Below are positions 24,434 through 40,247 of a stretch of 43,920 nt of DNA, piece by piece. The stretch covers positions 1 to 43,920 of the IMG/VR virus record IMGVR_UViG_3300038825_000664; one strand, given 5' to 3'. The notes under the pieces are model-generated. The model was given only the letters and a program-made list of their open reading frames with translations. It made no database searches and was not told where the DNA came from. Numbering within the stretch: position 1 is the first letter of the stretch; every line of letters starts with the position of its first letter. Origin of the DNA: a virus. The translations under genes were made by a program, and so were the position numbers.

Positions 24434-24863
24434 TCCATAGTTCAACTTCAGCAGCACGACGACGGGTCAACCCACGCAACACTCGACCACCAGCTTTATT
24501 CCAACGTGACATCTGATAAGGTACGTCATCAAAGTCACCGGTGTTAATCTTACGTCTAAGGGTTGATGCTCTGAATGCACCACTCCCCAGGTTATAAACG
24601 AAACTAGCAAGTGCAGCACGCTGGTTCGGATTCAAGTAAGGTTTACAGTATCTTACAACAACACGTTCAGCTTTTTCAAGTTCATGGTGTAACCATTGTT
24701 CTGCTTGCTCACGAGTGCAATTGACATCACCACCTTTGACACGACGACCATCAGGGTAACGAGTAGTACCGAAACCGATGGTCCACACACCAGCAGCACA
24801 GCGATAAGGGGTAGATGAATACCCCTCAAATCTGACAACCATGTCAACCCCTGTTTTAATCAT
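24417..24863 (-). CDS. Endolysin, GH24 (T4/lambda-type) lysozyme, 148 aa
   Basis: The stretch FEGYSSTPYRCAAGVWTIGFGTT carries the E-x8-(D/C)-x5-T catalytic signature. ATGA coupling to the holin stop. Confidence 0.85.
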   Translation of the reverse strand: MIKTGVDMVVRFEGYSSTPYRCAAGVWTIGFGTTRYPDGRRVKGGDVNCTREQAEQWLHHELEKAERVVVRYCKPYLNPNQRAALASFVYNLGSGAFRASTLRRKINTGDFDDVPYQMSRWNKAGGRVLRGLTRRRAAEVELWNEQHD

Positions 24864-25344: not shown

Positions 25345-27729
25345 CTATGTTAACTGACCCATAACTTTAAATCCTGATGGTGTTCGCATCCAACCTATAT
25401 TATCAGCAACACCAGAAGGATCGCTGTTCCATACTTTTTCGCCATTGTTCCAAATCCCACCAGCAGGGGCGGAGCTTGCTTCTTCATCATAAATATAAGG
25501 CGCAGGCATTGAAGGTGTTCCGTTCTGGTACACACGCAAGCCTGAAAATTGAATTTTCTTTGAAACACTTGTTGAACCTGCGTTCTGTCTTACTGTAAGG
25601 GTTGTTGCATCACCATCTACCATCGTCATATATGTCCCCCACAACTCCCATCCGTTAGTGTAAACAACTACTGGTCTAAGATCCCTGTTTCCACTTGTGG
25701 TATTAAACACTCTTACCGTGGTGTCAGTTTCACTTATTCGTTTAACCATCAGTGTGACCCAAACGGTCATTTCGTTACCTCTATTGGTTTCAGCAGGTAA
25801 GAACGTGTAATTAGCCTGATTGTCTGTTGCGGCAGTTCCAGCGCCTCTCCTGAGTTCGATATATATACCAGAAAGAAAAGCGTCAGCACCCTCTAGAAAT
25901 AACCCTCCAGCAGGGGACCAAGTCAACCCTTCAACTGAACTCCTAAAGCTTGGGGTTGCTCTTGTTGTTGCCTCGACAATTTTTATCTCCATTGGCTCAC
26001 CAGCAGACAACTTAACTGAATCAGTGTAGTTACTTATTCCTGTTGCTGTAATGACTGGGTTTAATAAAACGGCTGGTGTAAAGCCATAGTGGTTAGCTGA
26101 ATAGTTTGCACCACCTGCTACATTATCCCTGTCAGATGCGTCGATAACATAAGGCGCTTTTTTAGCCTCAAAATAACAGCCCGTAATACTTGTGCCGTTG
26201 CCCCTATCTAAAAACAGGGCTACATTCGCGTTACCTTCAACACCAACACCACCGCTTATTGTAGTACCAGCACCAAGGCTAACATCACCACCGATAACAA
26301 TAGCGTAGTCTTTACCTAGCGTGTTAGCTGGAAAGTTTGTTCTGTCACTAAATGAACCACTTAAAACACCTGTTGCTGAAATTGTATCAATGTCGCGTTT
26401 ACAATCGCGTGTAATACAATGATTAATTTGATGATAATAAGTAAATACTTCGTTACGTCTATCAAGTTTGAATGCTGTACCTTGCCAGAAGTCAGTAACC
26501 ATTACACGTTCAAAATTAGTCCCCATGGTGTCGTACATATCAAAACAGTGAAGTGTATTTCGATTATATTCTGTGACTGGTGAGCCACTGTAACCAGGGT
26601 ATGTTCCACCTGTTGGCTGAACACAAACGTAAAAATCTCTAAACTTCATCTGCCAGTTTGACGATGCGTGAGCATTAGGATCAACACCAAAGTTTTTATT
26701 TTTAGGCTCTAGGAATGACAAGCTTGTAGATGGATTAAATCTAAACTTAGAACCAGGACCTACACCGTATAATAAAACAGACGACCCCATGAATAATGTG
26801 GTTGTAGTTATATACTCACCAGGTGGTATGAACACCAAACCGCCACCAGGTGACATTGATTGGTAGTTGACAGTCATATACGCTGTGTCAATCCATGCAA
26901 ATATATGGTTCATAACAGTAGTATTGTCAAACTCTAAAAACCCCACATCATTTCTATCATGTGCACCCCAAGCTTTAATATCAATTTTCCCTTGAAACCG
27001 TATTACTAACGCTAAAGTTGCTACACCTGTACATTGAACAATGTTATAAGTGTTCGGTGTGACACTTGATGCTAGGACAACATCCCACATTGCACCACCA
27101 CCGTTCCCTGATGTCCGTTCTTTCATGTTACATGCTTGGTTTAATTTCAGGTTATTGTCACTTACAGCAGACGTTAATGTTGAATAGTTTATGACAGGTT
27201 TGTCTGCTGCTATCTCATCACTTGTTAATGCAGAAAATGGGTCGTAATTTTCAAGACCAGTACCACTACCGTTCCACCGTAACGCAAAACCAGCACCTGG
27301 TGAATCAAGTGATAATGGTAAAGAACCTGTATAAGTTTTTGATACAGCAGGACTGCGTGATTTTTCATCCAGCAACTGCTGTATCAACAGTGTCAACTTA
27401 TCCATTGCATTCTCATGTAGGTCAGGGAAGAACGGACCTTGTGATGAGAATGCGGTCAATTGTGTCTCTTTAAAGTCGGATCGAATAAACCACTCATAAC
27501 CTGTTGGTAAAGGACCTGGTATGCGTGTGACTATACCACCACCGTCGTTACCAACACCACTTACAGTGTAGTTAGTGTCAACAACCAACAAGGTTTGAAT
27601 ACCTATGTCATTTGTTTCATATACGCTCAGTTGGTCTTTATCATCTACTTTAAACGTGTAGCTGAATGTTTCTGCTACATCGTTACCAACGTAAGGACCT
27701 GATGTGATTTTTGTGGTATTAACAGTCAT
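25345..27729 (-). CDS. Tail fibre/tailspike, 794 aa (T7 gp17 position)
   Basis: Its position is after the internal virion genes. N-terminal anchor-like segment is TSGPYVGNDVAETFSYTFKV. The central part is long and Gly/Asn/Thr-rich, consistent with a beta-helix. Confidence 0.65.
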   Translation of the reverse strand: MTVNTTKITSGPYVGNDVAETFSYTFKVDDKDQLSVYETNDIGIQTLLVVDTNYTVSGVGNDGGGIVTRIPGPLPTGYEWFIRSDFKETQLTAFSSQGPFFPDLHENAMDKLTLLIQQLLDEKSRSPAVSKTYTGSLPLSLDSPGAGFALRWNGSGTGLENYDPFSALTSDEIAADKPVINYSTLTSAVSDNNLKLNQACNMKERTSGNGGGAMWDVVLASSVTPNTYNIVQCTGVATLALVIRFQGKIDIKAWGAHDRNDVGFLEFDNTTVMNHIFAWIDTAYMTVNYQSMSPGGGLVFIPPGEYITTTTLFMGSSVLLYGVGPGSKFRFNPSTSLSFLEPKNKNFGVDPNAHASSNWQMKFRDFYVCVQPTGGTYPGYSGSPVTEYNRNTLHCFDMYDTMGTNFERVMVTDFWQGTAFKLDRRNEVFTYYHQINHCITRDCKRDIDTISATGVLSGSFSDRTNFPANTLGKDYAIVIGGDVSLGAGTTISGGVGVEGNANVALFLDRGNGTSITGCYFEAKKAPYVIDASDRDNVAGGANYSANHYGFTPAVLLNPVITATGISNYTDSVKLSAGEPMEIKIVEATTRATPSFRSSVEGLTWSPAGGLFLEGADAFLSGIYIELRRGAGTAATDNQANYTFLPAETNRGNEMTVWVTLMVKRISETDTTVRVFNTTSGNRDLRPVVVYTNGWELWGTYMTMVDGDATTLTVRQNAGSTSVSKKIQFSGLRVYQNGTPSMPAPYIYDEEASSAPAGGIWNNGEKVWNSDPSGVADNIGWMRTPSGFKVMGQLT

Positions 27730-27765: not shown

Positions 27766-30700
27766 TTACTTACGTTCAGGACCAAATAAGAATTGATGAG
27801 TAGTAAAGTCTTCACCTTCAGCAAGGACATCATACAAATGTTCACCAGATGCCCACGCTTGACCTGTACCTGGTACACCTAGTGTTGCACCGAGTAACTT
27901 ACTAATTGATTTAATTTGACCTTTCGTCAGTTCACCATCAGCAAGCACTGCTTTTGATGCACCTTCTAAACCTTGTAACCCTTGTTCTACAATTGACGTA
28001 ACCGGTGAAGCATTGTAACCATAACCAGCTACCACACCATTAACAACATCGCGTACAAAAGGTATTGATGCAATCGGGTACAATGCAACCTTAGTCATTA
28101 CATTCTGCAATAACTCTTCAGGTTCTTCATCTTCTTTGGCAAACTCACCGCGCATTATCATCTCAAATAATACTGGTATGGTGAAAAGAAACATTGTTTT
28201 AGCTGCTACAGTGGTGGTTGAATATTTACCAGACTTAGTACCTTTCACTAAATCACGTTGCAAATTCCACAATGCACTGAAGAATGTCATGAACATGGTG
28301 AAGATTGTATGTGTCTTGGTTTGATTACGCATCAGTGCAGCCATGTCTTTAGTAGCACCTGAACCTTGAACATTCTCAATCACCCAGTCAGCATACTGAA
28401 ACGCTTTCTTTTCATCACCAGACTCACCAAGCTCTTTAATGTATGCAGCGTGCCATGATGGTAAATCAACCATGTAAGTTTGGATCAAAGCAATGTGCTT
28501 CATTGAAGCTTCTTGAACTGCTGCAAGCACACCACGTTTACTTTCGAGCTGTTGCATTGCATTCATGATTTCCCGATCCATTGTCTGTGTACGATGCTTC
28601 AGTACCTTGGACTTCTCAGTGGCAAATTCCCATGCACTCTTCATGCTGTCAACACTACCGAGTATTGTACGAAGTGACTGATACACTGGACCCATACCCA
28701 CTTCAGCAATGGTGTTTGACAAACCACTGATCTGAATGATACCAGTTGATGCTTTGAAACCCATTACACCGAGTGTAGTACCTAAGCGTAACTTATTGAA
28801 CATTGCATCAACAATCGATTTATTCGGTGCATTACGTCCATCTTTAGCAATGTCATTTAACCACGGTTTCAATTGTGCAAATTCTTCAGGACCTAGTTTC
28901 GATGTCACTGCATCCTTCACACGTGGGTCACGTAGTAATCTGTTCACTTCACGTACTGCATCATGGTGAGTGATGTAGTGGATTGTTTCTTGAATATGAT
29001 TAGGAACCACGTTCAATGTTAAATGTATTGGTGCAAAGTAACCGGTACGCTCATTCGTTGACCCAGTGTTCACTGATGATTGTATGCTGGCGTTACTGGC
29101 AAACATTGAACCCACTTCAGCTTCTTTACGTTCTTCAAATTCAGCAGCTTTATTATCACGAGTCGGGTCATACTTAACAGGGTAATAACCACCTTTAAAC
29201 GTACCATGTTCAGTCACAACTGGTGTAGCTTCAACTTTAGGTGGTACAAGTCCAGTGGTGCGACGATGCACTTCAGCAAGTTTCGGGTAAAGAATATCAA
29301 TCTGATCCCAAATCTTCTGAACCATCTGCCAATCGGATTTCGTCATGTGCTTCAGTACAGCAACTAACTTGTCATTCTGTAAACTGATTTCACCAGTGTC
29401 TTCAGTGGCCCACTGTTCACCGAGTAATAACTTTCTCAAGTTACCTTCGTTACCGGTGTTCAATGCGACTGCAATAATCTCATGACCTTTCAAGTTACCG
29501 GTGTGAGTACCACCAGCAGTACCTTTGATTTCAGGTATAAAGAATGTAGTGTTGTGACGCTTCTCATCTTCCTTGCTTCTGTTCTTGATCATGTCAGTGA
29601 CGGGTTTACCCACTTCTTCAAACATTTCTAATTCAGCATTGTATGCGTCAGTCATCGGTTGTGAGAATGTGGTGAACCATGTACCCACTCGATCCATTCC
29701 GTCCATCCATGACATCATGTAAGGTATCTTGGTCATCTGACCCATTGCCCACCGACCCTTGCGTTCAATCCAAGTTAGGTCATCAGCAACACTTGCAGAT
29801 TTTTTGAATCGACCTGTACCAGTTTCAGCAGCAGTGGTGACAAGTTTGTCAACCAGTTTATTGTATTCAATTTCTTCACCCATTCGAGTGAGTTTATTCG
29901 AGTAACGTGCAACATGTTCAATGTTCTTCACTGAGTCATCGATACCCTGTAAATCGCTATAAGCAACATTTTTCCAATGGGTGACATAAGATTCATTCAA
30001 CACCACGTTAGCCAATACTAGACCATCACCGTGAGTGTCCATGCGTTCAGCAGCCCAGGTATTAATATCTTGGTTAACTTGATCAACAGAACCTAGTGTC
30101 GCAGATTTTCTGAACTCAAATCGTTCAAGGATTTTGACGATCTGATCCCAGTAACCACCTTCAGCTTTTTGAATTTCTTCACGTACTTTTTTCTTATTGT
30201 AACGATTCATACGGTCAACAATTTTCACCGTGTCATTCTTCGCTTCAGTTGCTTCCATACCAAGGTAGTAGTTTAATGCTTGACGTGCTTTAGCTTGTGC
30301 AGCACCTTCTTTGTTACCTTCAGTCAACATGCGTGCAGCTTCTTGTGCAGCTCTTATCTCAGCCTTGCGATACTTACCAGGGTGAATTTCTCTGAATGAC
30401 AAGTTACCAATACGTTCAGCAGCAATTGACTTCATTGTTTGACGGTCAAGACTACGCTGGTTAGTACCACGTGAAAGAATTTTTAACTCATGAAGAATCA
30501 ACTTACCACGTTCTTCATTCTGCACAGCTTCATCAGCTTGACGCTCAATCGTACCATCGGTGAACACATCACCATGACGTTCAATCATTCGAGCTTGTGC
30601 ATTAGCTTCAGCAGTTTCTTTGATAGGTGGTGCAGTCATTAAGTCATTGAGTAATTCAGCACCTGAGTTGTAACCGAAGAATGCAGCAGCTTCATCAGGG

Positions 30701-33700
30701 TGAACACCTTTCTGACCTTTCGCTGTCATACCGCGCAGTTTGTCAGAGACACGTGTTGATGTGCGACCCAGTTTATCTGTACGTTCTTCACCGACCATCT
30801 CTTTCACAGTCGCATGGTCAAGCTTAATGTCACCATCACGTAAACGTGTAGCAGTTGAGTAAACTTGTTCACCGGCTAAACGACCCAACTCTTCATCAGT
30901 CAAGTCAGCTTTTTCTTCTTTCCACCATTGCTGTGTTTTACGGGTAAGTGCTTTGATTAATTTGTCGCGCAATGTTTCAGTCTGAATGTCTTTGACTTTT
31001 TCTTGACGCTGTTGATAATCACTGAACTCTTCAGCAGTCATACCTGCCATCGTAGCATCGGTGAACATTGGTTCAACTCGTGCACGTGACTCAGCAGCAG
31101 CAATCTGTTCTTCAGTTGCAAGCAAACGGTCAAATACTTGACGCATCTCAGCATCAAGTTTCACATTCAAGTCACCACGTAGTGCTTGATAAATGCGTGC
31201 AAGCCATCGTGCAAATGTTCTGAATGCATTACGCAGTTCAACACTTGGTGCTTTACCTTCCATCAAATAAGTTTCAAAGCCACGAGCAAACTGCTCATGT
31301 ACAGCACGACGAACAGCAGCATCTTTGTCAGTGCTACCGGTTGCACCAGTGTCAAGATAGTTCACCACATCAGCTTCAGTCACAGTTTGCTTGTTGTCAT
31401 TGGTGCGCTCACCCTGCTTGATAGCATCAAAGTTACCGTTAAGGTTCTTAGTAGCTTCAGCAGCAACATCTTCAGCATTACGCTTGTACCAGTTGTTAAT
31501 GCTTTCATTCATGTCAGTGTTACCTGACGCTTCCATCTCATACATGAAGTGTGCAAACTCATGAAGGAAGGTTGACAGGTCAGCAGATTCAGTCAAACGT
31601 ATAACACTGTTCTCAGGGTCATAATAACCACGAGCAACACCGGTGTCTGGTTTCTTTTGGAACAATAGTTTTTTCTGCTCACTGATAACTTGCTGGCGCG
31701 TTTTACCTACACCTTTAGGGTCGTAAGTTTTAATCTTCAACCCTGCATCTTTCAATACTTGTAACGCATTTTTGTTCATACCCTTTGGTACAACAGCAGT
31801 GTTGAATTCTTCAAAACCAACAGCACGTTGGATCTTAGTTTCAAAGTAACTTGATGGCAAAGCACTAAGGTACTCAGTGAAGTCGTCAACAATCTCACGT
31901 ACTTCAGGTGTCACGTTAAATGCTTCATTCAACCCTTTACGACCTTCTGTGATTGCAGTACCTGCATCATCTGCATAACCCCAACCATCAGCATCAAACT
32001 TGTAGAATGGTTTCAGCTTTTCAAGCACTTCCTCAAATACATCAGCAGATTCTTGCTTGACTTCAGTCATCTCAGCTTCACTGACAATCTCACCACGTCG
32101 TGCTTGAACCTGTTTAATGGTTTTCATTTCATTAGCAAACGCAGAACGAACTGTACCAACACCATAGAATGATGCTTCACCAGCTTGCAGCTTCTGTGTC
32201 ATTTCCTTGACAACACTTTGCATATTGTAATCGACGTACTTCTTGTTACCACTTGGTGAGAAACCTTTGAACAACTTCTTACCTTTCACCATGTCATTGA
32301 ATTTGTCAGTCACCCATTGGTCATACTCATCACGGGTCTTCTGAACACGCATCTTTTTATCGATGTCAGTACGAAGCTGGTGAGTATCGGTTGCACCTTT
32401 TTGCTTGAAGTTTCGGACCGTTGTTTCAAAGTCGTATAACTTACCTGGTATAACTTCACCATTCTCAAGAAACCAGAAACCACTGAAACGTTCAGCGCGA
32501 CCTGGGTCTTTTTCCAAGATTGCATCAAGCATTGTTTGATAATGTGCTTTAGCAGCTTTTTGAAACTTAGGATCACGCGCATCAATTTTGTCTAGCTTCG
32601 CAGCTTTCTTGACAGTTGCATCAATCTTTTTGTTTTTAAGTTTCGGTGCTTTACCTTGTTCTTGTAACCATAAGTATTGAACAGCAGTTGAACGTTGAAG
32701 GTTGTCAGCACCAGTGCCATCTTGTAACGAGTTGATGTCTGGTTTACTTAGATTAAGATCACGAGCATCACCCATCTGTTCATCGAGTTCATTGAATTTC
32801 TTTTGATCAATGTCATAAGTAGGACGTGGTTGTCGTGGTGAATATATGTCAGCATCAAAATTACGTGCTTTATCTGATTCGAGTAACGACGGGTCAGCAA
32901 GTAATGACACTTCACCAAATGCATCAAAGTCACTTACATCAGTTCGGATAGTAGCAATCGACGGTGCAGCTAAACCACCAAGGTCAGCAGCAGCAAGAAT
33001 GTTTTCAGATGAAAGGTTATGTGTGACAACTAGGTTCGCGTCATCAACTGGTGATTGTGCTAAAGGGTCTGATGAAGCAAATGCTTTACCTGCTTCAGAT
33101 AAGTCTTCAGAGTGTTTAACTGATTCAAAGTCTTCACGTGCACGTGCTAACAGTTCAGTACCGATACCTTCTTTTTGTCTACCTTCTTTCGTGACAGCGT
33201 TTGCAATAGTTGCCGTTTTACCACCATCTGTACTGGTGACTTGAACTGTACCAACTATTTCACCATCTTCAGCTTTGACATATCTACGACTTACGAATTG
33301 GTCAGATGGTGTGTTAACTGCTTCAAACACAGATAACCCTTCATCGTTAAAAGTACCTGATTCTTGACCGATACTTAATGATTCGTTTTGAGGTAACAAG
33401 AAGTCAGCAAAATCACCAACAGCATCTTGAGTCAACACCTGCTCACCTTCAAGTCGGGCAAGCTCACCGGTCTGTGGTCCTTCAATGGTTAACCCTGCAT
33501 CAGTGTAAACTTGTTGAACTGTTTTACCGCTACGTGCAGCTTGAGCGGTTGCCCATGCAGGAACAACTTGAGCCATGATTGAAGCATTAGCCGCATTCAC
33601 TGCACCAGTGTCAATCAGTTGATCACGAACAGTGGTATAAATTTCCTGTGCTTCAACGTACTCAGATGCATTCTCTTGAGCTTCAGCCATTATTGTTTCA

Positions 33701-35280
33701 ACGTATGCTTTAGTCTCAACCTCATGTTGCTCTTGACGGAATGGTGAAACTGTTTCCTCACTCATCGTCATGTGTTCACGTAACTCAGTAGCTGCTTCAG
33801 TACCGGCAATGTCACCCATGAATTCATCAACGGGAACCGCGACATCAGCACCTGTGGCACGAGACTCACGTGCAGCATTAGCAAGTGCTTTCAATGCAGG
33901 GTCAGCATCAATCTCTTCACGTGTTTTACTTTGTAGAAATAATGAAGTTTGAACACCATCGATAAACACGTGAGTATTATTCTCACCATCAGCTTCACGA
34001 ATAAATTGCTTAAATGACTCAACATCACGTTCACGCAACTTAGACTTAACTGAATCAGCACTTAACTTGTCAATGTTACGTTGCTCAACATCACCTTGAG
34101 TTGCTTGTTCTTGCTCAGTCTGAGTCAACTTAGCAACCGTCTTATTGACAGCAGTTGCAGCACCTATCTGTGCACCACCTGCCACGACAGTAGCAATGGC
34201 AGTGACCGCTTGACGACGTAACTGTATGTTGATTACCTCTTGTGCACCTTCAGCATTTTCAAGTTCTTTATCTAAACCGAACATGTATGAGTTAACTGTC
34301 TGCAATGCAGTAGCAAGTTGCTCAGTACCCATCTCTTGTACTGCGAATTTCAATGCTGATTTAGTTAACCCTTTACTTTTACCGGTTAGAATTGTTTCAA
34401 TTGTTTTCGTTGGTAATAACTCAGTACCCACTTCGATAGCTGCATCAATGGTGGCAAACCATCGCGCTTCTTCAACAGTCAACCCTTCAGCACGACCTTC
34501 ACCGTATGAACCAGTAAACGTCTGTGCACCAATGGTGACAAGTAATGGTGTAGTACGACCACCTGATAAGACAGTTAGTGCAAGACCTGGGGCCATGTTA
34601 GCAAGTGACTCAACACCTGCTCGAACACCTTCTTGAACAATGTTCATGTCTTCAGGTGTTAATGATTGACGTTCTTTTTGTAATGTTTGAATCTCACCGA
34701 TGAGTCGGTCACTTGATTCCTGTTTAGCAGCAGCAAGTTGTTCGTCAGTTTCAATACCAGCGTTAGCAGCAAACTCACGCGACAAGTCACGTGCAACATT
34801 CTCCATACCTATTGGCATAGCACCAGCAGGTATCAGGTCCTCAATGCGACTCGATGTAGCTTCATTACCAGCGAGTAATAGACCGCGACCTTGAATGTCG
34901 AAACCTACACCGATTGAGCGACCCATACCGTCGAATGTTTTTTCAATACCTTCAAGTAAGTTACTGATCACGTCTTCTTGTGCAATGACAGAATTGTTCA
35001 CATCAGTGGTGAGAAACTTAGAAGTTTTCGGTGCACGTTGTGTCATACCTTCAAGGTTAATCTGGTCAAGCTTGAGCTTCTGTTGAATTTGTTCAGGGTT
35101 AGATTGTACAGCGAACTCAGGTACACCAGACTCTTTGCTCAGTTTAGTGGTCTGAGCATGTTGGTCAGGGTTAATCTTGACAGCTTCACCCATATTAGCG
35201 TTCAATTGCGTCTGCTGTGGGTCTTCTTCGTTCAGTCCGAAACCACCAAGGTCTATTTTACTAAGGTCTAAATCAGGCAT
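27766..35280 (-). CDS. Giant 2504-aa internal virion/ejection protein (T7 gp16 position), multi-domain
   Basis: TAATG coupling to the gp15-position gene. GNAT-like module at aa 662-737. HEFAH module at aa 1240-1244. C-terminal hydrophobic helices are encoded at 28150-28315. Confidence 0.8.
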   Translation of the reverse strand: MPDLDLSKIDLGGFGLNEEDPQQTQLNANMGEAVKINPDQHAQTTKLSKESGVPEFAVQSNPEQIQQKLKLDQINLEGMTQRAPKTSKFLTTDVNNSVIAQEDVISNLLEGIEKTFDGMGRSIGVGFDIQGRGLLLAGNEATSSRIEDLIPAGAMPIGMENVARDLSREFAANAGIETDEQLAAAKQESSDRLIGEIQTLQKERQSLTPEDMNIVQEGVRAGVESLANMAPGLALTVLSGGRTTPLLVTIGAQTFTGSYGEGRAEGLTVEEARWFATIDAAIEVGTELLPTKTIETILTGKSKGLTKSALKFAVQEMGTEQLATALQTVNSYMFGLDKELENAEGAQEVINIQLRRQAVTAIATVVAGGAQIGAATAVNKTVAKLTQTEQEQATQGDVEQRNIDKLSADSVKSKLRERDVESFKQFIREADGENNTHVFIDGVQTSLFLQSKTREEIDADPALKALANAARESRATGADVAVPVDEFMGDIAGTEAATELREHMTMSEETVSPFRQEQHEVETKAYVETIMAEAQENASEYVEAQEIYTTVRDQLIDTGAVNAANASIMAQVVPAWATAQAARSGKTVQQVYTDAGLTIEGPQTGELARLEGEQVLTQDAVGDFADFLLPQNESLSIGQESGTFNDEGLSVFEAVNTPSDQFVSRRYVKAEDGEIVGTVQVTSTDGGKTATIANAVTKEGRQKEGIGTELLARAREDFESVKHSEDLSEAGKAFASSDPLAQSPVDDANLVVTHNLSSENILAAADLGGLAAPSIATIRTDVSDFDAFGEVSLLADPSLLESDKARNFDADIYSPRQPRPTYDIDQKKFNELDEQMGDARDLNLSKPDINSLQDGTGADNLQRSTAVQYLWLQEQGKAPKLKNKKIDATVKKAAKLDKIDARDPKFQKAAKAHYQTMLDAILEKDPGRAERFSGFWFLENGEVIPGKLYDFETTVRNFKQKGATDTHQLRTDIDKKMRVQKTRDEYDQWVTDKFNDMVKGKKLFKGFSPSGNKKYVDYNMQSVVKEMTQKLQAGEASFYGVGTVRSAFANEMKTIKQVQARRGEIVSEAEMTEVKQESADVFEEVLEKLKPFYKFDADGWGYADDAGTAITEGRKGLNEAFNVTPEVREIVDDFTEYLSALPSSYFETKIQRAVGFEEFNTAVVPKGMNKNALQVLKDAGLKIKTYDPKGVGKTRQQVISEQKKLLFQKKPDTGVARGYYDPENSVIRLTESADLSTFLHEFAHFMYEMEASGNTDMNESINNWYKRNAEDVAAEATKNLNGNFDAIKQGERTNDNKQTVTEADVVNYLDTGATGSTDKDAAVRRAVHEQFARGFETYLMEGKAPSVELRNAFRTFARWLARIYQALRGDLNVKLDAEMRQVFDRLLATEEQIAAAESRARVEPMFTDATMAGMTAEEFSDYQQRQEKVKDIQTETLRDKLIKALTRKTQQWWKEEKADLTDEELGRLAGEQVYSTATRLRDGDIKLDHATVKEMVGEERTDKLGRTSTRVSDKLRGMTAKGQKGVHPDEAAAFFGYNSGAELLNDLMTAPPIKETAEANAQARMIERHGDVFTDGTIERQADEAVQNEERGKLILHELKILSRGTNQRSLDRQTMKSIAAERIGNLSFREIHPGKYRKAEIRAAQEAARMLTEGNKEGAAQAKARQALNYYLGMEATEAKNDTVKIVDRMNRYNKKKVREEIQKAEGGYWDQIVKILERFEFRKSATLGSVDQVNQDINTWAAERMDTHGDGLVLANVVLNESYVTHWKNVAYSDLQGIDDSVKNIEHVARYSNKLTRMGEEIEYNKLVDKLVTTAAETGTGRFKKSASVADDLTWIERKGRWAMGQMTKIPYMMSWMDGMDRVGTWFTTFSQPMTDAYNAELEMFEEVGKPVTDMIKNRSKEDEKRHNTTFFIPEIKGTAGGTHTGNLKGHEIIAVALNTGNEGNLRKLLLGEQWATEDTGEISLQNDKLVAVLKHMTKSDWQMVQKIWDQIDILYPKLAEVHRRTTGLVPPKVEATPVVTEHGTFKGGYYPVKYDPTRDNKAAEFEERKEAEVGSMFASNASIQSSVNTGSTNERTGYFAPIHLTLNVVPNHIQETIHYITHHDAVREVNRLLRDPRVKDAVTSKLGPEEFAQLKPWLNDIAKDGRNAPNKSIVDAMFNKLRLGTTLGVMGFKASTGIIQISGLSNTIAEVGMGPVYQSLRTILGSVDSMKSAWEFATEKSKVLKHRTQTMDREIMNAMQQLESKRGVLAAVQEASMKHIALIQTYMVDLPSWHAAYIKELGESGDEKKAFQYADWVIENVQGSGATKDMAALMRNQTKTHTIFTMFMTFFSALWNLQRDLVKGTKSGKYSTTTVAAKTMFLFTIPVLFEMIMRGEFAKEDEEPEELLQNVMTKVALYPIASIPFVRDVVNGVVAGYGYNASPVTSIVEQGLQGLEGASKAVLADGELTKGQIKSISKLLGATLGVPGTGQAWASGEHLYDVLAEGEDFTTHQFLFGPERK

Positions 35281-36911
35281 TATTGACTCGCTTGTCGTTG
35301 CGCTTTGAGTAAGTTATCAGCAGTTACTGGGACCCCATTGTCGCGTAAGAATTTACTTAATGTTCTTACATTTTCAGGTGGTATCTCTGTAACATTTTGT
35401 TCTACATCTGGTGCTAGGAAATCAATACCAAATGCACTTCTCTCAATAGTAACCTCTCTTGTTAAATCTGACAACACATCTGTGAATTCTGCTGATGACA
35501 GTGAACTACCTTTCTGTTCTTCACGATGTTGTACTTCACCATCTAACAGGTCATAGAATGAGTTAGCTTTGTTACGCTTTTCATCATTCCACTTAGACTT
35601 CTTACCCATTATCTGCTCAACAGCAGCAGTGGTCTGTGCACTACGTGTTCGACCTACTTGGTGATCAATCTTGTCTTTCGATGAACCAGTACCACCTGCA
35701 CTTTTAACTGCGCTGATTAACTTACTACGTTCACCAGGTGCAAGGTCTTGGAAGTGTTCAGTCGGGTTGACCTTAGATAATTCTTCTTTAGGTAACATCA
35801 TCAGGTCTGAAAATTTATTCCAGTCAGTGATGATTGCTTTACCTGAATCAATACTCTTTTTCTGTTTGGTACTCAACCGTTCCCAACCTTCAGGATCAGT
35901 TGCTTGGAATGTCTCAGCAGAACCACCTTCAATGATATGAGACTCAGCACTTTCAAATGACTCAGCTTGTGCTTCACTCTCACCCTGCTTCTTCAAGTTA
36001 AATTGACGCATTGCTTCAGTCATCGTTTTCTTACGAAGTTCAGGGTCTTCAATGGTGTTAACCTGCTCACGTACTTCTTCACGACTGTCATAGGTATCAA
36101 CTAACTTAGTACCGGCAACAATGGCTTGCTGTGAGTCAGATTGAATCTTCTCAGCTTTAGCTTTAGCAGCAACATCTTTCTCAAGTTTAACTTTGTCAGG
36201 ACCTTCAAGTCGTGCACCATGTTTCTCCATCATTGCAGCACCTTCTTCAGCACTGCTACTGATAGCCGATGTAATAGCTGTTTTTGCAAATGATGAGTCA
36301 TAGGTCTGCAACCGTTCATTAGTTGCTTCAGCACCGATACCTTCAAGTTCAGCAGCATCAATCACCGCTTGACGACCTAGTGCGTTTTGCACTGCTAACT
36401 TGTCAGGTTGATTCCAATACAATGAAGCATTCTCAACGGTGTTCTCAACTTGCGATCTGATAGTGGCAACTTCCCACGACTTCAAACCTTTAGCTGAGTG
36501 ACGTGCAATGTCAGCTTGACTACGTGTGATATGTAAATCAGCAGACTTGTCAAACATCGATTTAGCATTAGTACCTAATGATTTACCATACTGCTTCTTC
36601 AACTCATCAAGTGACTTGTTTGCAGCATTAGCATTGTCAAAAGCATTTTTACCCTGGGTATTAAAGTAACCGTTTTCAGGATTAAAGAATAATTGGTTTT
36701 TATCACGCTCAAACGCCACCAATGCTTCTTCAGCAGATGTGGTGTCAATACGTTGAGTGACCTGTGCAACAGCACTACCCACCGACGCAAGACCTTGTGC
36801 AGCTTGAATGTTAGAACGGAATACAGCATTACCTGCTGAAGCATCAGCACGTGGTTGCCTGGTGACATTGGTGTGAACCTGTTGAGGTCCATAAGTTGCG
36901 ACTTTAGGCAT
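35280..36911 (-). CDS. Internal virion protein, 543 aa (T7 gp15 position)
   Basis: Called from synteny and TAATG coupling on both sides. The protein looks helical and rich in charged residues. Confidence 0.6.
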   Translation of the reverse strand: MPKVATYGPQQVHTNVTRQPRADASAGNAVFRSNIQAAQGLASVGSAVAQVTQRIDTTSAEEALVAFERDKNQLFFNPENGYFNTQGKNAFDNANAANKSLDELKKQYGKSLGTNAKSMFDKSADLHITRSQADIARHSAKGLKSWEVATIRSQVENTVENASLYWNQPDKLAVQNALGRQAVIDAAELEGIGAEATNERLQTYDSSFAKTAITSAISSSAEEGAAMMEKHGARLEGPDKVKLEKDVAAKAKAEKIQSDSQQAIVAGTKLVDTYDSREEVREQVNTIEDPELRKKTMTEAMRQFNLKKQGESEAQAESFESAESHIIEGGSAETFQATDPEGWERLSTKQKKSIDSGKAIITDWNKFSDLMMLPKEELSKVNPTEHFQDLAPGERSKLISAVKSAGGTGSSKDKIDHQVGRTRSAQTTAAVEQIMGKKSKWNDEKRNKANSFYDLLDGEVQHREEQKGSSLSSAEFTDVLSDLTREVTIERSAFGIDFLAPDVEQNVTEIPPENVRTLSKFLRDNGVPVTADNLLKAQRQASQ

Positions 36912-37459
36912 TATGCAAAACTCCCAACTTGATTAATGTTCGAGGGTGTGCCGGCTAGATTAGTAACAGCAGCACTTGATGGTGTGAACCATTTATCAGC
37001 AACACCTGTACCTAACACTGTTGAAGTAGCTTGTAACAAGGTACCTGTTGCAGCACCTTTACCTGCTGACTCAGCAAACTCACCTTGACTTGTTGTCAAT
37101 GCAGCACCTGTGTCTAATGATGATGCTTGGTTCGCAAAATTGCTACGAATACGCAGAGCATCAGCTTCACCGAGTGCAACCGTTTCTTCTTGTAGTTGTA
37201 ATGCTGATCCTGATGTCAGGTCAATATTCCCTGCACCAAGTTGTGCACGTTGCTTAGATAACAACTCAGCAGTCTTACGACGTTGAATGTTCTCAGCTTC
37301 AACACCAGCATTACGAGTTTCTTCAGCTTCATTCTCAGCTACACGAGCATTATAGTCAGCAGTAGACTTCTGAAACTTACCTTGTTTAACTTGTTGGTTA
37401 GCAGTAAATGCAGCAGAGACAACTGCTACTGCTGCCATTATCGTAGTTGGTTCGCACAT
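36911..37459 (-). CDS. Internal virion protein, 182 aa (T7 gp14 position)
   Basis: Called from synteny. Hydrophobic N-terminus MCEPTTIMAAVAVVSAAF. TGATG and TAATG coupling to its neighbours. Confidence 0.6.
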   Translation of the reverse strand: MCEPTTIMAAVAVVSAAFTANQQVKQGKFQKSTADYNARVAENEAEETRNAGVEAENIQRRKTAELLSKQRAQLGAGNIDLTSGSALQLQEETVALGEADALRIRSNFANQASSLDTGAALTTSQGEFAESAGKGAATGTLLQATSTVLGTGVADKWFTPSSAAVTNLAGTPSNINQVGSFA

Positions 37460-37923
37460 CAGCGTGACCTCTCTAAATGAAATCGATGGAACAATTCATC
37501 ATCTGGACCATGTGGTATTGGGTCTTCAATTGTAAACCCTAACCACTTCAACCATAGAATACTGTTCGTGTTCTTATTATGCACCATGTTACACAATCGT
37601 GGGCATATAGTCAGCATTTCATCAATGATAGGTTTAGTCTGACGAAAGAATTCTTTTTTATGCTTCATTGCTCTATTAGCGCCAAGCATCCACACGACAC
37701 CTGACCCCGTAAGCATGTCACGCTTAACTAAACCAATTATCACCAATGGTTCACCATTGTCATCTATTGCAACCGTTGAAACGTCAGACAGCTCCCAACC
37801 TTTCATCATAGACTCTAATGGTGAATGATGATTCGATGCCCATACTTCTTCAGCATCAGCTTGCCTCATGTCAGCAGCAATGGACTCAACCAGTGCTACT
37901 GTTGGCTTTACCCATTGAATCAT
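37459..37923 (-). CDS. 154-aa protein at the T7 gp13 position, possibly N4 gp49/Sf6 gp66-family (acetyltransferase-like fold)
   Basis: Called from synteny. The C-terminal NSILWLKWLGFTIE resembles the N..S..W...LGF signature of that family. This is recollection only. Confidence 0.5.
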   Translation of the reverse strand: MIQWVKPTVALVESIAADMRQADAEEVWASNHHSPLESMMKGWELSDVSTVAIDDNGEPLVIIGLVKRDMLTGSGVVWMLGANRAMKHKKEFFRQTKPIIDEMLTICPRLCNMVHNKNTNSILWLKWLGFTIEDPIPHGPDDELFHRFHLERSR

Positions 37924-40244
37924 TAGTTACCACCTACATCGACTTGAGGGATTACTGACAGTATAGCCATTGGTAAAGGTGCACGCTGTTCAATCCTAAG
38001 ACCACCACCTTTTGACCACTGTGGTTGTATGAACACTTCTTGCTTATAAGTTTTCAATGCAATTGGGTCATAGTTGTCACCGTCGAATCTTGGTTTAATC
38101 TCACTCATCGGTGGAGCTGAACCATTGTCCTGTCGTGGCCCTACAAATCCACCACGTGATCCTGAAACCTCAATGGTAACCTTCGACACTGAAACAGATT
38201 GAGCTTTGACTGTTTGACCCTGTGAAGGTGTATCAATGTCAAGTGTCTCAATGACAGGTGTATAACTAAGACCGACATGTACTTTTGATGCAGCACGTTC
38301 AAGTGTGATCGCACCTGTGATGACTACTTGATCAGGTACAGTGTAACCATCTGTCAATATCGACACAGTTTCACCTTCGAGATGACCAAGACCACTTATG
38401 ACCGTAGCAGGTATACCACCGTATGTCAGACCTGAGTCAACGTAGAAACAGTCTGCTGCATTGATTGATTCACGTTTCTCTAATCGTTCAACATAACGAA
38501 CATCTGAACCGTTAACATTACGCTTGACAATAACATACACTGCATCACGGTCATCTTCTGCAATCGATGAAACTGACTCAAAAGTACCTTGTGTATTGTG
38601 TTGATGCCATCCCCATACCTGGTGTTCACGTTGGTATGTTAAACCTAACATCACACCGTCATTACGAACACACCAAACAATACTATAAGGTTCAGCAGCA
38701 TAAGCCATTGATGTAATCTGATGTTCTTCAAACAAGTGTTCTGCCATCAATGACAAATCGTTACCGGTATATTTATCACTGCTGAACTCATAACCTAAAT
38801 CACGAAGTCGTGCACCTTTCTCTTGAAGGAACAATGCTGTGCTGTTGATCACAACAGGTGGAACTATTGAAACACCGTTATACGACTGTATTCTCACACC
38901 GATAGTTGAAGGTGTTAACACTCTGTCTTGACCTTCTGTCATTATCCACTCACCACCAGATGTCAACAATATCAGTGAATCAAGTGGTAACAGATGGCGT
39001 ATCTCATTTACTTGTTGTGCTGCAATCGTAAAGGTCACAGCATCATCATCACGTGCAGGGTTAGATGTACGCAATGAATTGAAATTATTTACCTGAGTTG
39101 TATACGTTACTTGGGGTTCATTGTTGGTATTAGCGAACACTTGACGCTGTTGATAATACGTCACTGTTGATGGTTTATTACCAACCCCTGAGAACGGTTG
39201 ACGGTCTTCAGGTGGTGCGTCACTTGTAATCGGTGCAATGTTATAATCATCAAATGAATTGTTATTTGAATCACCTATCCAACCATAAATACCTGTACCC
39301 ACTGAAGGGTCCTTATAAACACGATAGTAAGTAGCACCAACCACAGTACCCCATGACAAACGAATACCACCGGTCTGTGATAATGACTTAGCTGTGACAC
39401 TGATCTCAACAGATGCAAGTGACTCAATACCTGCTTCATCAACAGCAGTGACAACATAAGTGTAAGTCTTCTCAAAATCACCGAAACCATCACCGATTGT
39501 TGTAGCACCTTTCTGTCTTTCAGCTTCACCACCACTGGTGTATATACCATGTGCAGTTGCATCTTCACCAACGAGTTCAAACGTATCATCTGTCACGACT
39601 GATATTGTGAAAAATCTATCATTGAGTTCAGTCATACCACCGACATTGACAATCTCAACTAAGTTACCACTAACGAAACCATGTGCAACTGCTGTAACTC
39701 TTGCAGGGTTCGCATTGGTGATTGCCGTTATAGATATTGAATCAACACCTGCTGTGAATGCTGGTGCTGTGACTGTTGTTGAATAATCAATTGTTGTCAA
39801 CGACCAGTTGTCATCAGCTAATCGATTGAGGTTTGCAGGGTCATGATCAGGGTGAACAATGGTCATCACATCAGCATTCTGTGTGAAACCTAAACGTGGT
39901 AACTGTGCTTCAGTGTAAGGTGTAGCAAGTTCAAATATTGCAGGACCTCCACCCGCTAAAACAAAACCACCATCTTTAATAACACGTACTTTTAAATGCT
40001 CAAACACCAACATATATGTCTGTTCAGTGTTAAAGCTGAATGGGATTAATCGACCGACTTTAGATGAGTCATCAAGTTCACCGATGAAACGTAGACCTGG
40101 GCGTGAGTAAACACCACCTTGTGCACGCACGAACATGTTCTCACACAAAGCCAACCCAGTAGCATACTTGGTTAAGTCTGCACGAGACTGTAATGCTGGC
40201 GCAATCTCACCAGATGTAAAACTACGTTGAATAATTTGTGGCAT
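37923..40244 (-). CDS. Tail tubular B/nozzle-like protein, 773 aa, with inserted FCCH-like and FN3-like modules
   Basis: Synteny with the T7 gp12 position and a similar size. N-terminal segment is RSFTSGEIAPALQSRADLTKY. The insert NPARVTAVAHGFVSGNLVEIVNVGGMTELNDRFFTISVVTDDTFEL is FCCH-like. SWGTVVGATYYRVYK is FN3-like. Confidence 0.6.
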   Translation of the reverse strand: MPQIIQRSFTSGEIAPALQSRADLTKYATGLALCENMFVRAQGGVYSRPGLRFIGELDDSSKVGRLIPFSFNTEQTYMLVFEHLKVRVIKDGGFVLAGGGPAIFELATPYTEAQLPRLGFTQNADVMTIVHPDHDPANLNRLADDNWSLTTIDYSTTVTAPAFTAGVDSISITAITNANPARVTAVAHGFVSGNLVEIVNVGGMTELNDRFFTISVVTDDTFELVGEDATAHGIYTSGGEAERQKGATTIGDGFGDFEKTYTYVVTAVDEAGIESLASVEISVTAKSLSQTGGIRLSWGTVVGATYYRVYKDPSVGTGIYGWIGDSNNNSFDDYNIAPITSDAPPEDRQPFSGVGNKPSTVTYYQQRQVFANTNNEPQVTYTTQVNNFNSLRTSNPARDDDAVTFTIAAQQVNEIRHLLPLDSLILLTSGGEWIMTEGQDRVLTPSTIGVRIQSYNGVSIVPPVVINSTALFLQEKGARLRDLGYEFSSDKYTGNDLSLMAEHLFEEHQITSMAYAAEPYSIVWCVRNDGVMLGLTYQREHQVWGWHQHNTQGTFESVSSIAEDDRDAVYVIVKRNVNGSDVRYVERLEKRESINAADCFYVDSGLTYGGIPATVISGLGHLEGETVSILTDGYTVPDQVVITGAITLERAASKVHVGLSYTPVIETLDIDTPSQGQTVKAQSVSVSKVTIEVSGSRGGFVGPRQDNGSAPPMSEIKPRFDGDNYDPIALKTYKQEVFIQPQWSKGGGLRIEQRAPLPMAILSVIPQVDVGGN

Positions 40245-40247
40245 TGT

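Follow-up and report, generated by a model that had tools for sequence, protein, structure and literature searches.

Gene neighbourhood of the 2504-aa protein

The window analysed here is a whole stretch of viral DNA of 43,920 nucleotides (IMG/VR virus record IMGVR_UViG_3300038825_000664). Its virion genes are arranged in the order tubular tail A, tubular tail B, gp13-like, gp14-like, a 543-aa protein, a 2504-aa open reading frame (ORF) and a tail fibre, with the following coordinates:

37923..40904, minus strand: tubular tail proteins B (37923-40244) and A (40248-40904), matching phrog_376 (5e-209) and phrog_394 (8e-41)
37459..37923, minus strand: gp13-like internal virion/assembly protein, 154 aa (phrog_308, 2e-40)
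36911..37459, minus strand: gp14-like internal virion protein, 182 aa (Pfam T7_gp14, 3.6e-7, above cut-off; phrog_418, 6.6e-31)
35280..36911, minus strand: 543-aa protein in the gp15 (IVP-C) slot, the upstream neighbour of the giant ORF, with 0 Cys
27766..35280, minus strand: giant ORF, ATG start, 2504 aa plus stop, a probable polyvalent ejection protein in the gp16 (IVP-D) slot
25345..27729, minus strand: tail fibre/spike with a T7 gp17-type N-terminal adaptor (aa 1-120), adjoining the giant ORF downstream

The product of the giant ORF matched phrog_9880 over its full length (9e-300), and an identical protein, P0001, is present in public data. A one-base overlap was found at each of the four junctions upstream of the gene, at positions 37923, 37459, 36911 and 35280, where the coding strand reads TAATG, TGATG, TAATG and TAATG, respectively. 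This bears out the initial annotation, which had proposed synteny with the T7 gp13-gp14-gp15-gp16 order with all four junctions overlapping and had put the protein at about twice the size of T7 gp16 (2504 aa vs 1318 aa, a ratio of 1.9). Large size is normal for this lineage: BPP-1 Bbp10 has 2052 aa, and homologues that carry no cargo have about 1900 aa.

The neighbouring proteins were assigned with differing strength. The gp13-like protein matched Pfam Phage_T7_Gp13 weakly (0.0039). The first 247 residues of the 543-aa protein aligned with aa 1-273 of BPP-1 Bbp11 (E 2e-9), and the PHROG 'endolysin' families that match it cover aa 1-264 only; it is without the SLT domain of Bbp11, and no transglycosylase was found in it. 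Several PHROG tail-fibre families matched the tail fibre/spike, with the matches limited to aa 1-120. The same phage encodes a separate Phage_lysozyme endolysin at 24417-24863.

A conserved scaffold with a single cargo slot

Alignment with 240 homologues divided the protein into a conserved backbone, made up of aa 1-618 and aa 1209-2504, and one sharply bounded cargo slot between these two parts, which ranges from 0 to about 2000 aa. The features of the protein, from its N-terminus to its C-terminus, are:

33427..35280, minus strand: N-terminal scaffold, aa 1-618, all alpha-helical (AF2 pLDDT about 60-88; homologue alignment)
34921..35196, minus strand: LPD22 (large polyvalent protein associated domain 22, Pfam PF18834), aa 29-120
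34147..34209, minus strand: hydrophobic Gly/Ala-rich segment, aa 358-378 (AVTAIATVVAGGAQIGAATAV), a Kyte-Doolittle peak
33427..33435, minus strand: junction motif 1, L616-T-Q618, the end of the N-terminal scaffold and start of the slot, where homologues diverge
33055..33426, minus strand: cargo module 1, GNAT-like acetyltransferase, aa 619-742, ending L740-A-Q742 (Pfam Acetyltransf_1)
31657..33054, minus strand: cargo module 2, PBECR5 with a fixed C-terminal extension, aa 743-1208, 466 aa, ending L1206-F-Q1208 (Pfam PF18814)
31081..31656, minus strand: predicted zincin-like metallopeptidase (MPTase) region, about aa 1209-1400, the first part of the conserved C-terminal backbone
31549..31563, minus strand: HExxH motif (HEFAH), aa 1240-1244, occurring once in the protein
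31273..31299, minus strand: second zincin helix, H1328-E-Q-F-A-R-G-F-E1336, with a candidate third zinc ligand, in invariant columns
27769..31080, minus strand: C-terminal scaffold, aa 1401-2504, mostly alpha-helical (homologues, Bbp10 alignment, Foldseek)
28153..28323, minus strand: hydrophobic helical pair, aa 2320-2376 (Kyte-Doolittle peak at 2357-2376; AF2 helices 2320-2350 and 2355-2376)

The N-terminal scaffold (aa 1 to ~618) is common to about 110 of the 120 Vibrio-clade homologues listed and is also found in BPP-1 Bbp10, while the C-terminal scaffold is present in all 120 Vibrio-clade and all 120 BPP-1-clade homologues listed. LPD22 was detected above the Pfam cut-off (E 9e-13 to 3e-12). 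DSSP on the AF2 models showed the scaffold parts to be almost wholly helical. In the Gly/Ala-rich segment, T360, A363, T364, V366 and G369 are nearly invariant in the family alignment, and the segment is a possible membrane-active stretch. The modelled pair at aa 2320-2376, which corresponds to the C-terminal hydrophobic helices reported earlier, is a candidate membrane-inserting hairpin. A Foldseek search of BFVD with the C-terminal part hit nothing but the C-terminal portions of further large phage proteins, whose names reflect diverse cargo (polyvalent, ART-PolyVal, N-acetyltransferase, MuF-C, nuclease, UDP-GlcNAc kinase). The more than 1000 aa that had previously resisted assignment thus proved to be mostly conserved alpha-helical scaffold common to all homologues rather than hidden effectors. 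Structural repeats alone, the outcome named at the outset as refuting an effector-like protein, were not seen: self-BLAST returned the identity match alone and TRF one trivial 12-nt repeat.

The slot, by comparison, is variably filled. Residues 625-1200 are common to only 22-35 of the 120 Vibrio-clade homologues listed, the empty-slot homologues have 1901 and 1957 aa, and the longest homologue reaches 3863 aa. Elsewhere in the Vibrio clade the slot holds ART-PolyVal, GGDEF, GNAT, LPD23, M78/DUF6782 peptidase, zeta toxin, Kinase-PolyVal, RadC-JAB or SLT domains, the last in one distant homologue (P0118); slots of the BPP-1 clade hold PBECR1, PBECR3, LPD3, RadC, ART and ParB. Slot content differs even among phages with scaffolds more than 90% identical. 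P0007-P0012 have scaffolds about 92% identical and different cargo; P0003 is 98% identical in the C-terminal part and only 48% in the PBECR5 module; and P0018 is 70% identical in the C-terminal part and 80% in the PBECR5 module. The histories of scaffold and cargo are thus different, and exchange of slot content this rapid suggests that phages and host defences are engaged in an arms race.

GNAT-like and PBECR5 modules occupy the slot

The Acetyltransf_1 match in cargo module 1 (aa 665-719) scored above its cut-off in a Pfam scan of a 400-aa slice (E 1.5e-5, 25.7 bits vs 20.7) and had an E value of 1.1e-4 on the whole protein. It spans about 55 residues of the 124-aa module (model positions 34-89 of 116), whereas a full GNAT fold, a mixed beta-sheet opening in a V, takes about 150 aa. 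The GNAT QxxGxG-type motif reads QKEGIG here and RRMGHA or KRQGHA in relatives. The module is rare: among the matches listed it occurs only in P0017, in P0089 and, as a protein of its own, in P0389 (128 aa). With no more than three sequences in the alignment, AF2 modelled it poorly (pLDDT below 40). The GNAT-like insert proposed earlier is therefore real in terms of Pfam, but modest in extent.

PBECR5 (PF18814) was detected with much greater strength in cargo module 2 (3.4e-17, 63.6 bits vs a cut-off of 25), and phrog_22978 matched aa 743-1210. All 14 members of the PBECR5 alignment (A4) match PF18814. The two parts of the module, 740-900 and 901-1200, always occur together (33/120 and 34/120 of the homologues listed), and AF2 modelled it with pLDDT above 90. 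At least 93% of 33 carriers retain H754 (in VVTHNLS) and D811, and S774 is likewise conserved. The active-site pattern given by Iyer et al. 2017 (PMC5512222) combines a His towards the N-terminus with a Thr or Ser towards the C-terminus. End-to-end matches to the module were found in 2619 cluster representatives, nearly all of them inside proteins of 2000-6000 aa. No PDB relative was found by sequence and no fold match for the whole model. From its sequence, PBECR5 is predicted to be a metal-independent RNase of the BECR fold. This module, the main cargo, had been missed in the initial annotation.

A candidate zincin-like metallopeptidase region belongs to the backbone

The HExxH motif had been described as lying in a second insert. 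The motif is present, but it lies in the backbone: H1240, E1241, H1244, H1328, E1329, R1333, E1336 and Y1338 are invariant in 42 aligned sequences, down to 27% identity, and again in a set of 45 sequences that includes the BPP-1 clade. AF2 modelled two short strands (1218-1221 and 1226-1229) followed by two helices, 1235-1253 with the HExxH and 1317-1341 with the glutamates. The Pfam DUF6782 metallopeptidase model matched the region weakly (E 0.017, below cut-off), the Pfam MPTase-PolyVal model did not match the 2504-aa protein, and no PDB match to the region was found, including by Foldseek of the aa 1201-2400 model. Taken together, the motif, the secondary structure and the weak DUF6782 match make aa ~1209-1400 a candidate zincin-like metallopeptidase.

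Absence of cysteine

The 2504-aa protein has no cysteine, compared to 1.09% in the other proteins of the genome (P about 1e-12). Cysteine is also absent from T7 gp15, T7 gp16, N4 gp50 (3500 aa) and N4 gp51. Among the homologues, 177/240 have none and none has more than two, enzyme cargo included. This absence fits with proteins that cross the periplasm unfolded.

A short motif marks the module boundaries

Homologues diverge right after ...EGEQVLTQ, and an empty-slot homologue retains this joint, reading EQVLTQ|PDTSGARGYYDP. The pattern [LF]-x-Q falls exactly at Q618, Q742 and Q1208, and each of these sites is in a linker modelled at pLDDT below 50. Across the family, [LF]xQ was found within -12 to +8 residues of 97 of the 110 distinct indel breakpoints defined by BLAST, compared to 12.1 +/- 3.3 for random positions, and the slots of 57 homologues contained [LF]xQx(0-2)P 103 times vs 16.8 after shuffling; both counts come from related sequences and are not phylogenetically independent. 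In the BPP-1 clade (~30% identical), hydrophobic-x-Q stands 1-5 residues before ARGxF[DN]P, ahead of the peptidase, and unrelated module types have like ends (LLFQ, DIFKQ, ALRQ, EQFAQ, LLAQ). The presence of [LF]-x-Q at each module boundary is possibly a new detail, and the motif may mark cleavage sites.

One tentative reading of these joints, to which we give well under an even chance, is that the protein is ejected as a polyprotein: its [LF]-x-Q motifs would be sites with Gln at P1, cut by the invariant MPTase in the capsid or after ejection, and the swappable GNAT and PBECR5 enzymes would thereby be freed. The position of the motif in low-confidence linkers, its excess at breakpoints and in slots, the retained joint of the empty-slot homologue and the like ends in the BPP-1 clade and in unrelated modules are all in its favour, and autoproteolytic release by MPTases has been proposed in general terms by Iyer et al. 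2017 (PMC5512222). On the other hand, [LF]xQ could simply reflect a preference within linkers or a joint left by recombination, Gln at P1 would be an uncommon specificity for a zincin, and N4 gp50, with a similar MPTase, is without the motif and is packaged unprocessed according to that paper. Cleavage of this kind would refine the explanation given below and would not replace it. If it does occur, [LF]-x-Q would be a standard joint for module exchange between phages, and polyvalent proteins would acquire a 'plug-and-cleave' grammar legible from sequence.

The protein is probably a cargo-carrying ejection protein

We consider it likely that, in a marine Vibrio podovirus of the BPP-1/epsilon15 type, the 2504-aa protein serves as the largest internal virion (ejection) protein, that it is the counterpart of Bbp10, and that it is polyvalent and carries cargo. 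Its correspondence to T7 gp16 by gene position is part of this joint explanation and is held with the same good, though not complete, confidence. Gene order and a published chain of HMM-HMM comparisons are the basis of the IVP-D assignment, because direct similarity to T7 gp16, epsilon15 gp17 or N4 gp50 was not detected: with these as single-sequence targets, which makes for a weak test, hmmsearch gave scores below 11 bits and hhalign probabilities below 1%. Foldseek of the aa 1201-2400 model against the PDB, a query of 1200 aa and several domains, returned no phage protein, and its best E was 0.87. Solved structures show only part of T7 gp16 in ordered form. Bbp10 is listed as an IVP-D homologue in Table 2 of Hardies et al. 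2016 (PMC4819975), which also put forward the idea of IVP-D proteins with passenger domains bound for the cytoplasm.

A build like that of a polyvalent effector, as the initial annotation had it, is supported by the Pfam matches to LPD22, PBECR5 and GNAT; the GNAT and PBECR5 modules and the zincin motif lie in one polypeptide that also has LPD22 and virion-gene neighbours. The suggestion that it represents a new arsenal did not stand: Iyer et al. 2017 (PMC5512222) had already described the class, and UniRef names close relatives 'large polyvalent protein...'. Because polyvalent phage proteins were catalogued in 2017, the protein is a good example and not a new class. Low copy number in the virion, about 3-4, is a trait of the IVP-D family. 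A few copies would be packed in the capsid core and the proteins pushed unfolded through the tail before the DNA, where the scaffold may help to form a trans-envelope channel. The cargo would then refold in the cell and be active prior to phage gene expression; its likely activities are acetylation of a host protein and cleavage of RNA, whether from the host, related to defence or from the phage, and the built-in metallopeptidase probably frees or activates it. In related systems, N4 gp50 is injected and its MPTase-containing C-terminal region is needed for encapsidation (Iyer 2017, PMC5512222), and a 2198-aa putative polyvalent protein of phage PTXU04 is essential.

We infer both ejection and an anti-defence activity, the latter being one of several uses to which the cargo could be put. 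A different role for the cargo, as a tool of host take-over or competition (shut-off of translation or transcription, exclusion of phages or plasmids), is possible, and we give it well under an even chance. Parallels for take-over are T4 Alt, the T7 kinase and RegB. The GGDEF, kinase and zeta-toxin domains of relatives resemble physiology modifiers or toxins more than specific defence inhibitors, PADLOC shows no link to known defence proteins, and RegB-like mRNA targeting and protein modification are treated as equally plausible for PBECR and GNAT by Iyer et al. 2017 (PMC5512222). Against this stands how very quickly the slot content changes between near-identical scaffolds, as expected from a host-specific arms race; take-over functions of a general kind tend to be kept throughout a lineage.

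It is improbable that the protein is purely a structural core or channel protein in which the enzyme-like stretches are inactive relics or spacers for length or packing. About 1900 of the 2504 residues are indeed conserved helical scaffold, the cargo must be dispensable for the basic function because empty-slot homologues exist, and inactive PBECR domains such as that of Mu gp30 are known (Iyer 2017, PMC5512222). However, residues of catalytic type are retained (the invariant HExxH, H754 in at least 93% of carriers, the GNAT motif), PBECR5 is conserved throughout its length across the 2619 cluster representatives, and the cargo types belong to bona fide enzyme families. An identity as a lysis protein, or as a lysin with a beta/gamma-crystallin motif, has almost nothing left to recommend it beyond the GenBank labels of BPP-1 bbp10, the Caulobacter phage homologues and OANV1 gp16. 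Pfam, PHROGs and NCBIfam found no muralytic or crystallin domain, the gene lies within the virion module and not in a lysis cassette, and the phage has its own endolysin; this identity is effectively refuted.

Comparison with known systems

The closest parallel is BPP-1 Bbp10, which has homologues in Pseudomonas AF/HU1, Cobetia Carin-1, Xanthomonas CP2 and Caulobacter podoviruses as well. In both phages the gene lies between those for an IVP-C-like protein and the fibre, with tubular A, tubular B and an internal virion protein encoded further upstream, and in both proteins LPD22 (3.5e-25 in Bbp10 by Pfam), the N-terminal scaffold, the cargo slot, HExxH and the C-terminal scaffold come in sequence. 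Identity is 29% over aa 1214-2470 (~1300 aa, E 3e-133), and the N-terminus also matches. In contrast, the cargo is GNAT-like and PBECR5 here and PBECR1 in Bbp10, the SLT of Bbp11 has no equivalent in the gp15-slot neighbour, and the replication module of the Vibrio phage is different.

T7 gp16 (1318 aa) likewise comes after gp13, gp14 and gp15 homologues, is extensively helical, contains no cysteine and has an expected role in the ejectosome, which the 2504-aa protein would share. The latter has ~600 additional scaffold residues and ~590 cargo residues and an HExxH peptidase motif, and it has no N-terminal lytic transglycosylase, a domain whose presence varies within the IVP-D family. The absence of that motif had been noticed before, and our searches agree, as neither a transglycosylase nor a lysozyme domain was found in the protein by Pfam, PHROGs or NCBIfam.

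Like the N4 gp50 virion RNA polymerase, the protein has three parts (an N-terminal domain, central cargo and a C-terminal HExxH MPTase region) and no cysteine, and the MPTase motif patterns are similar by eye; the C-terminal domain of N4 gp50 was assigned to the IVP-D family by Hardies et al. 2016 (PMC4819975). The cargo of N4 gp50 is an RNA polymerase, whereas Pfam and PHROGs found no RNAP domain in the 2504-aa protein, and N4 gp50 is without the [LF]xQ..P junction motif. The P1 Dar proteins (DarB, DdrB) and T4 Alt and IPI* are also packaged in the virion and act in the cell on entry, and P1 DdrB has a C-terminal MPTase (Iyer 2017, PMC5512222). These are not homologous to the 2504-aa protein: they are head-internal proteins of myoviruses and not channel-forming proteins of podoviruses, and the helicase and methylase of P1 Dar have no counterpart here.

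With the polyvalent proteins described by Iyer, Burroughs, Anand, de Souza and Aravind (2017, PMC5512222), the protein shares the joining of unrelated enzyme domains in one giant polypeptide of a virion locus, as well as the domain types LPD22, PBECR5, GNAT and zincin MPTase. In that paper they are predicted to be co-delivered with DNA, and a GNAT family is described as confined to polyvalent proteins of gammaproteobacterial (pro)phages. Nothing categorical sets the 2504-aa protein apart. Term searches of the paper found no mention of a single fixed slot flanked by two scaffold halves, of discordant scaffold and cargo histories, of an absence of cysteine or of an [LF]xQ junction motif.

Implications

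The 2504-aa protein reveals no new class of system. The analysis also corrects misleading database names, such as 'coil containing protein', 'lysin', 'crystallin' and 'lysis protein'. What it offers is a well-bounded example of a podovirus ejection protein as a delivery vehicle, with a fixed scaffold of ~1900 aa and one refillable slot. With a slot so sharply bounded and with [LF]xQ at its joints, module swaps and engineered protein delivery by phages would be straightforward to plan. In the Nahant and oyster Vibrio collections, for which host ranges and defence elements have been mapped, the content of the slot is a candidate determinant of host range.

A 2504-aa protein in a T7-like structural block

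At ~44 kb, the window has the appearance of a complete podovirus genome, and Vibrio phages 1.185.O, PS25B.1 and 1.021.A-C are related to it at 75-82% nucleotide identity. Among its genes are those for a portal, large terminase, capsid protein and scaffold-like protein; those for ribonucleotide reductase, thymidylate synthase, primase, exonuclease, a gp2.5-like SSB, ligase, DNA polymerase and helicase; and a lysis cassette that includes a lysozyme of its own. The 869-aa ORF encodes a primase instead of an RNA polymerase, which places the phage outside the T7 family. The structural block is nevertheless T7-like, comprising tubular tail proteins A and B, a gp13-like protein (phrog_308, 2e-40), a gp14-like protein (Pfam T7_gp14, 3.6e-7), a 543-aa protein, the 2504-aa protein and a fibre with an N-terminus of the T7 gp17 type. 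The ORFs considered below are as follows.

1945-3621, minus strand: 558-aa ORF, flanked by the large-terminase and portal genes
27766-35280, minus strand: 2504-aa protein, ATG start
35280-36911, minus strand: 543-aa protein
37923-40244, minus strand: tubular tail protein B
43117-43830, minus strand: ORF matching PHROG family 458

The extent of the 2504-aa ORF is as the initial annotation gave it, as is the size of T7 gp16 used for comparison (1318 aa). The overlapping junctions were also confirmed: the four same-strand genes upstream each share a single base with the next gene, in the form TAATG or TGATG.

Three further observations were made on this genome and its relative. An insertion in tubular tail protein B (aa 187-245) matches the FCCH domain of ubiquitin E1 (Pfam PF16190, 6.3e-10). 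The 558-aa ORF appears by eye to be rich in beta-strand-type sequence and had no PHROGs, Pfam, NCBIfam or PADLOC match; in phage 1.185.O its place is taken by a pair of smaller hypothetical genes. The GenBank record of 1.185.O, the isolate closest to this phage, lists four 'CRISPR spacers' at 28101-28318, within hypothetical gene NVP1185O_27; these probably represent a mis-annotated array of short repeats.

A conserved scaffold with a variable cargo slot

A search of a large protein collection returned 183 relatives of the 2504-aa protein, of which 120 were listed. Residues 1-~618 and ~1205-2504, the two scaffold halves, are common to all 120, while aa 625-1200 are present in only 22-35. This intervening slot is empty in two homologues (1901 and 1957 aa), and the longest homologue reaches 3863 aa. 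All additional Pfam domains of the scanned relatives were located between the scaffold halves; they are ART-PolyVal, GGDEF, GNAT, DUF3990, LPD23, M78/DUF6782 peptidase, zeta toxin, Kinase-PolyVal, RadC-JAB and SLT. The window protein has the following Pfam domains.

aa 29-120: LPD22 (9e-13)
aa 665-719: GNAT core (1.5e-5, above cut-off)
aa 742-898: PBECR5 (3.4e-17)

The definitions of LPD22 and PBECR5 come from the polyvalent proteins described by Iyer et al. 2017 (PMC5512222). No further Pfam, NCBIfam or PADLOC family was found in the protein, and no PDB chain matched its sequence (phmmer) or the family profiles. Foldseek searches of both 1200-aa AF2 models against the PDB gave best E values of 0.4 and 0.87, although such helix-dominated whole-model queries may mask domain-level matches. 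Hydrophobicity peaks most strongly at aa 2357-2376 and aa 358-378. No internal repeats were found, which rules out a protein of structural repeats only, one of the outcomes that the initial annotation had set against its own proposal.

Residues 740-900, the PBECR5 part, are in every case accompanied by the 300 residues after them (33 and 34 of the 120 listed homologues), and together they make up one 466-aa module. This module is modelled by AF2 with pLDDT above 90 and occurs end to end in 2619 cluster representatives, nearly always within proteins of 2000-6000 aa. The GNAT-like module is rare: it is present in two other homologues, and a search for its relatives gave one stand-alone 128-aa protein and no more.

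Identities of scaffold and cargo were compared among the homologues. In homologue P0003 the C-part is 98% identical and the PBECR5 module just 48%, whereas in P0018 the C-part is 70% identical and the module 80%. Homologues P0007-P0012 have ~92% identical scaffolds with unrelated cargo. These mismatches indicate cargo exchange by recombination, and scaffold and cargo evidently have different histories.

The HExxH as part of the scaffold

The protein contains a single HExxH, at aa 1240, which the initial annotation had taken for an insert. Residues H1240, E1241, H1244, H1328, E1329, R1333, E1336 and Y1338 are invariant in alignments down to 27% identity that include the BPP-1 clade, and this putative zincin-like peptidase region is accordingly part of the scaffold, opening its C-terminal half. 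The AF2 order is two short strands, the HExxH helix, a variable insert and a helix with HEQFARGFE, the same layout as is given for zincin MPTases of polyvalent proteins by Iyer et al. (PMC5512222). By eye, the N4 gp50 MPTase has a similar motif pattern. The HExxH at aa 559 of T7 gp16 was considered as a zincin, but its context is unlike a zincin helix and it was taken as chance.

A second variable region was seen within and just after the peptidase, at aa ~1250-1325 and ~1300-1480 (window ~30840-31530). In several homologues the alignment breaks at aa ~1300 and resumes at ~1470-1485, and in homologue P0089 a GNAT domain lies directly upstream of this break. The space between the two zincin helices may therefore be a further site of module insertion.

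An [LF]-x-Q motif at module junctions

At the points where homologues diverge or gain modules, the sequence reads [LF]-x-Q, often with P no more than three residues after. With a slash marking the joint, the N scaffold ends in EGEQVLTQ/, the joints between modules read EQFAQ/AP, LLAQ/VP and PLAQ/SP, and the junction of the empty-slot homologue reads EQVLTQ/PDTSGARGYYDP. The peptidase is preceded by LLFQ, DIFKQ or ALRQ and then xxPDTGxARGYYDP; the BPP-1 clade likewise has a hydrophobic-x-Q motif immediately before its peptidase. In the window protein the motif ends at Q618, Q742 and Q1208, all in low-confidence AF2 linkers, and these ends define the modules as 619-742 (GNAT-like) and 743-1208 (PBECR5).

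With shared ancestry left in the counts, the motif was found near 97 of 110 distinct BLAST-defined breakpoints compared with 12.1 +/- 3.3 at random positions. On the same basis, the motif followed by P was counted 103 times in slots against 16.8 after shuffling (~sixfold enriched) and was depleted in the N scaffold. The association between motif and breakpoints is strong. The N4 gp50 sequence was searched for [LF]xQ..P and does not contain it.

Such motifs may be sites of cleavage or joints for recombination, and the two roles may also coincide. A prohead protease was weighed as the cutting enzyme, the candidate being the ORF at 43117-43830. No [LF]xQ is present in the capsid protein of the window. 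The ORF matches PHROG family 458, labelled 'protease' (6.7e-53). Its N-terminal half is acidic and of low complexity and its C-terminal half is helical; it looks like an acidic scaffolding protein, and the family label may be misleading.

Kinship with known ejection proteins

Tblastn with the C-part matched ~50 GenBank phages, including BPP-1 (Bbp10), Pseudomonas AF and HU1, Cobetia Carin-1, and Caulobacter and Xanthomonas podoviruses. GenBank names these relatives 'hypothetical', 'lysin', 'lysis protein' or 'crystallin'. The lysin and crystallin names were rejected, as Pfam, PHROGs and NCBIfam gave no muralytic or crystallin domain in the protein and the phage has a separate lysozyme. Bbp10 (2052 aa) aligns to aa 1214-2470 (E 3e-133) and to the N-terminus; it likewise carries LPD22, with PBECR1 in the equivalent slot, and BPP-1 has the same gene order as the window. 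A search started from Bbp10 gave 919 relatives built on this pattern but with different cargo (PBECR3, LPD3, RadC, ART, ParB), some already named 'polyvalent protein' in UniRef.

Bbp10 has been listed as a homologue of T7 IVP-D (gp16) (Hardies et al. 2016, PMC4819975). Local hmmsearch and hhalign comparisons of the family profiles with T7 gp13-16, epsilon15 gp14-17 and N4 gp50-52 gave no credible match, and direct tests of the 2504-aa protein against T7 gp16, epsilon15 gp17 and N4 gp50 were negative, so the IVP-D assignment rests on gene order and the published Hardies chain. The only BFVD matches of the C scaffold in Foldseek were C-terminal pieces of other very large phage proteins, whose cargo varied. 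No usable virion proteomics turned up in literature searches on the close relatives phage AF, Carin-1 and BPP-1. The N-scaffold profile aligned with epsilon15 gp16 aa 39-189 at 11 bits; this alignment, too weak for use, hints that epsilon15 gp16 and gp17 could be a split version of a Bbp10-type protein.

Cysteine avoidance

The 2504-aa protein contains no cysteine, compared with 1.09% over the genome's other proteins (P ~1e-12), and the 543-aa neighbour also has none. The same is true of T7 gp15 and gp16 and of N4 gp50 and gp51. Cysteine is absent from 177 of the 240 homologues, with a maximum of two, and the avoidance reaches the enzyme cargo too. This would suit proteins that have to cross the tail and the oxidising periplasm in an unfolded state.

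The 543-aa protein occupies the gp15 slot. Its homology to BPP-1 Bbp11 covers about the first 270 residues of Bbp11 (aligned to 273). In contrast to Bbp11, the 543-aa protein lacks the SLT transglycosylase domain, and its PHROG label 'endolysin' derives from SLT-bearing relatives. The phage's internal virion proteins gave no peptidoglycan hydrolase hit.

Proposed function

The architecture, conservation pattern, domain families, gene order and composition are established by the analysis. In the mechanism that we propose, the 2504-aa protein would be packed in the core and ejected ahead of the DNA. The scaffold would form a channel, the peptidase would release or activate the cargo, and the GNAT-like and PBECR5 modules would act in the cell before phage gene expression. 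An anti-defence role of the cargo is favoured because cargo turnover is rapid; alternatively, the cargo may help to take over the host or to compete with other elements. In phage PTXU04, a related putative polyvalent protein of 2198 aa is essential.

The initial annotation suggested a new arsenal, yet proteins of this kind are already known (Iyer et al. 2017; Hardies et al. 2016). In the papers on polyvalent and IVP-D proteins that were examined, no earlier description was found of the single fixed slot, the scaffold/cargo discordance, the cysteine avoidance or the [LF]xQ motif. Among these points, the absence of cysteine might be used to recognise ejected proteins by their composition, and the junction motif is the most interesting lead.
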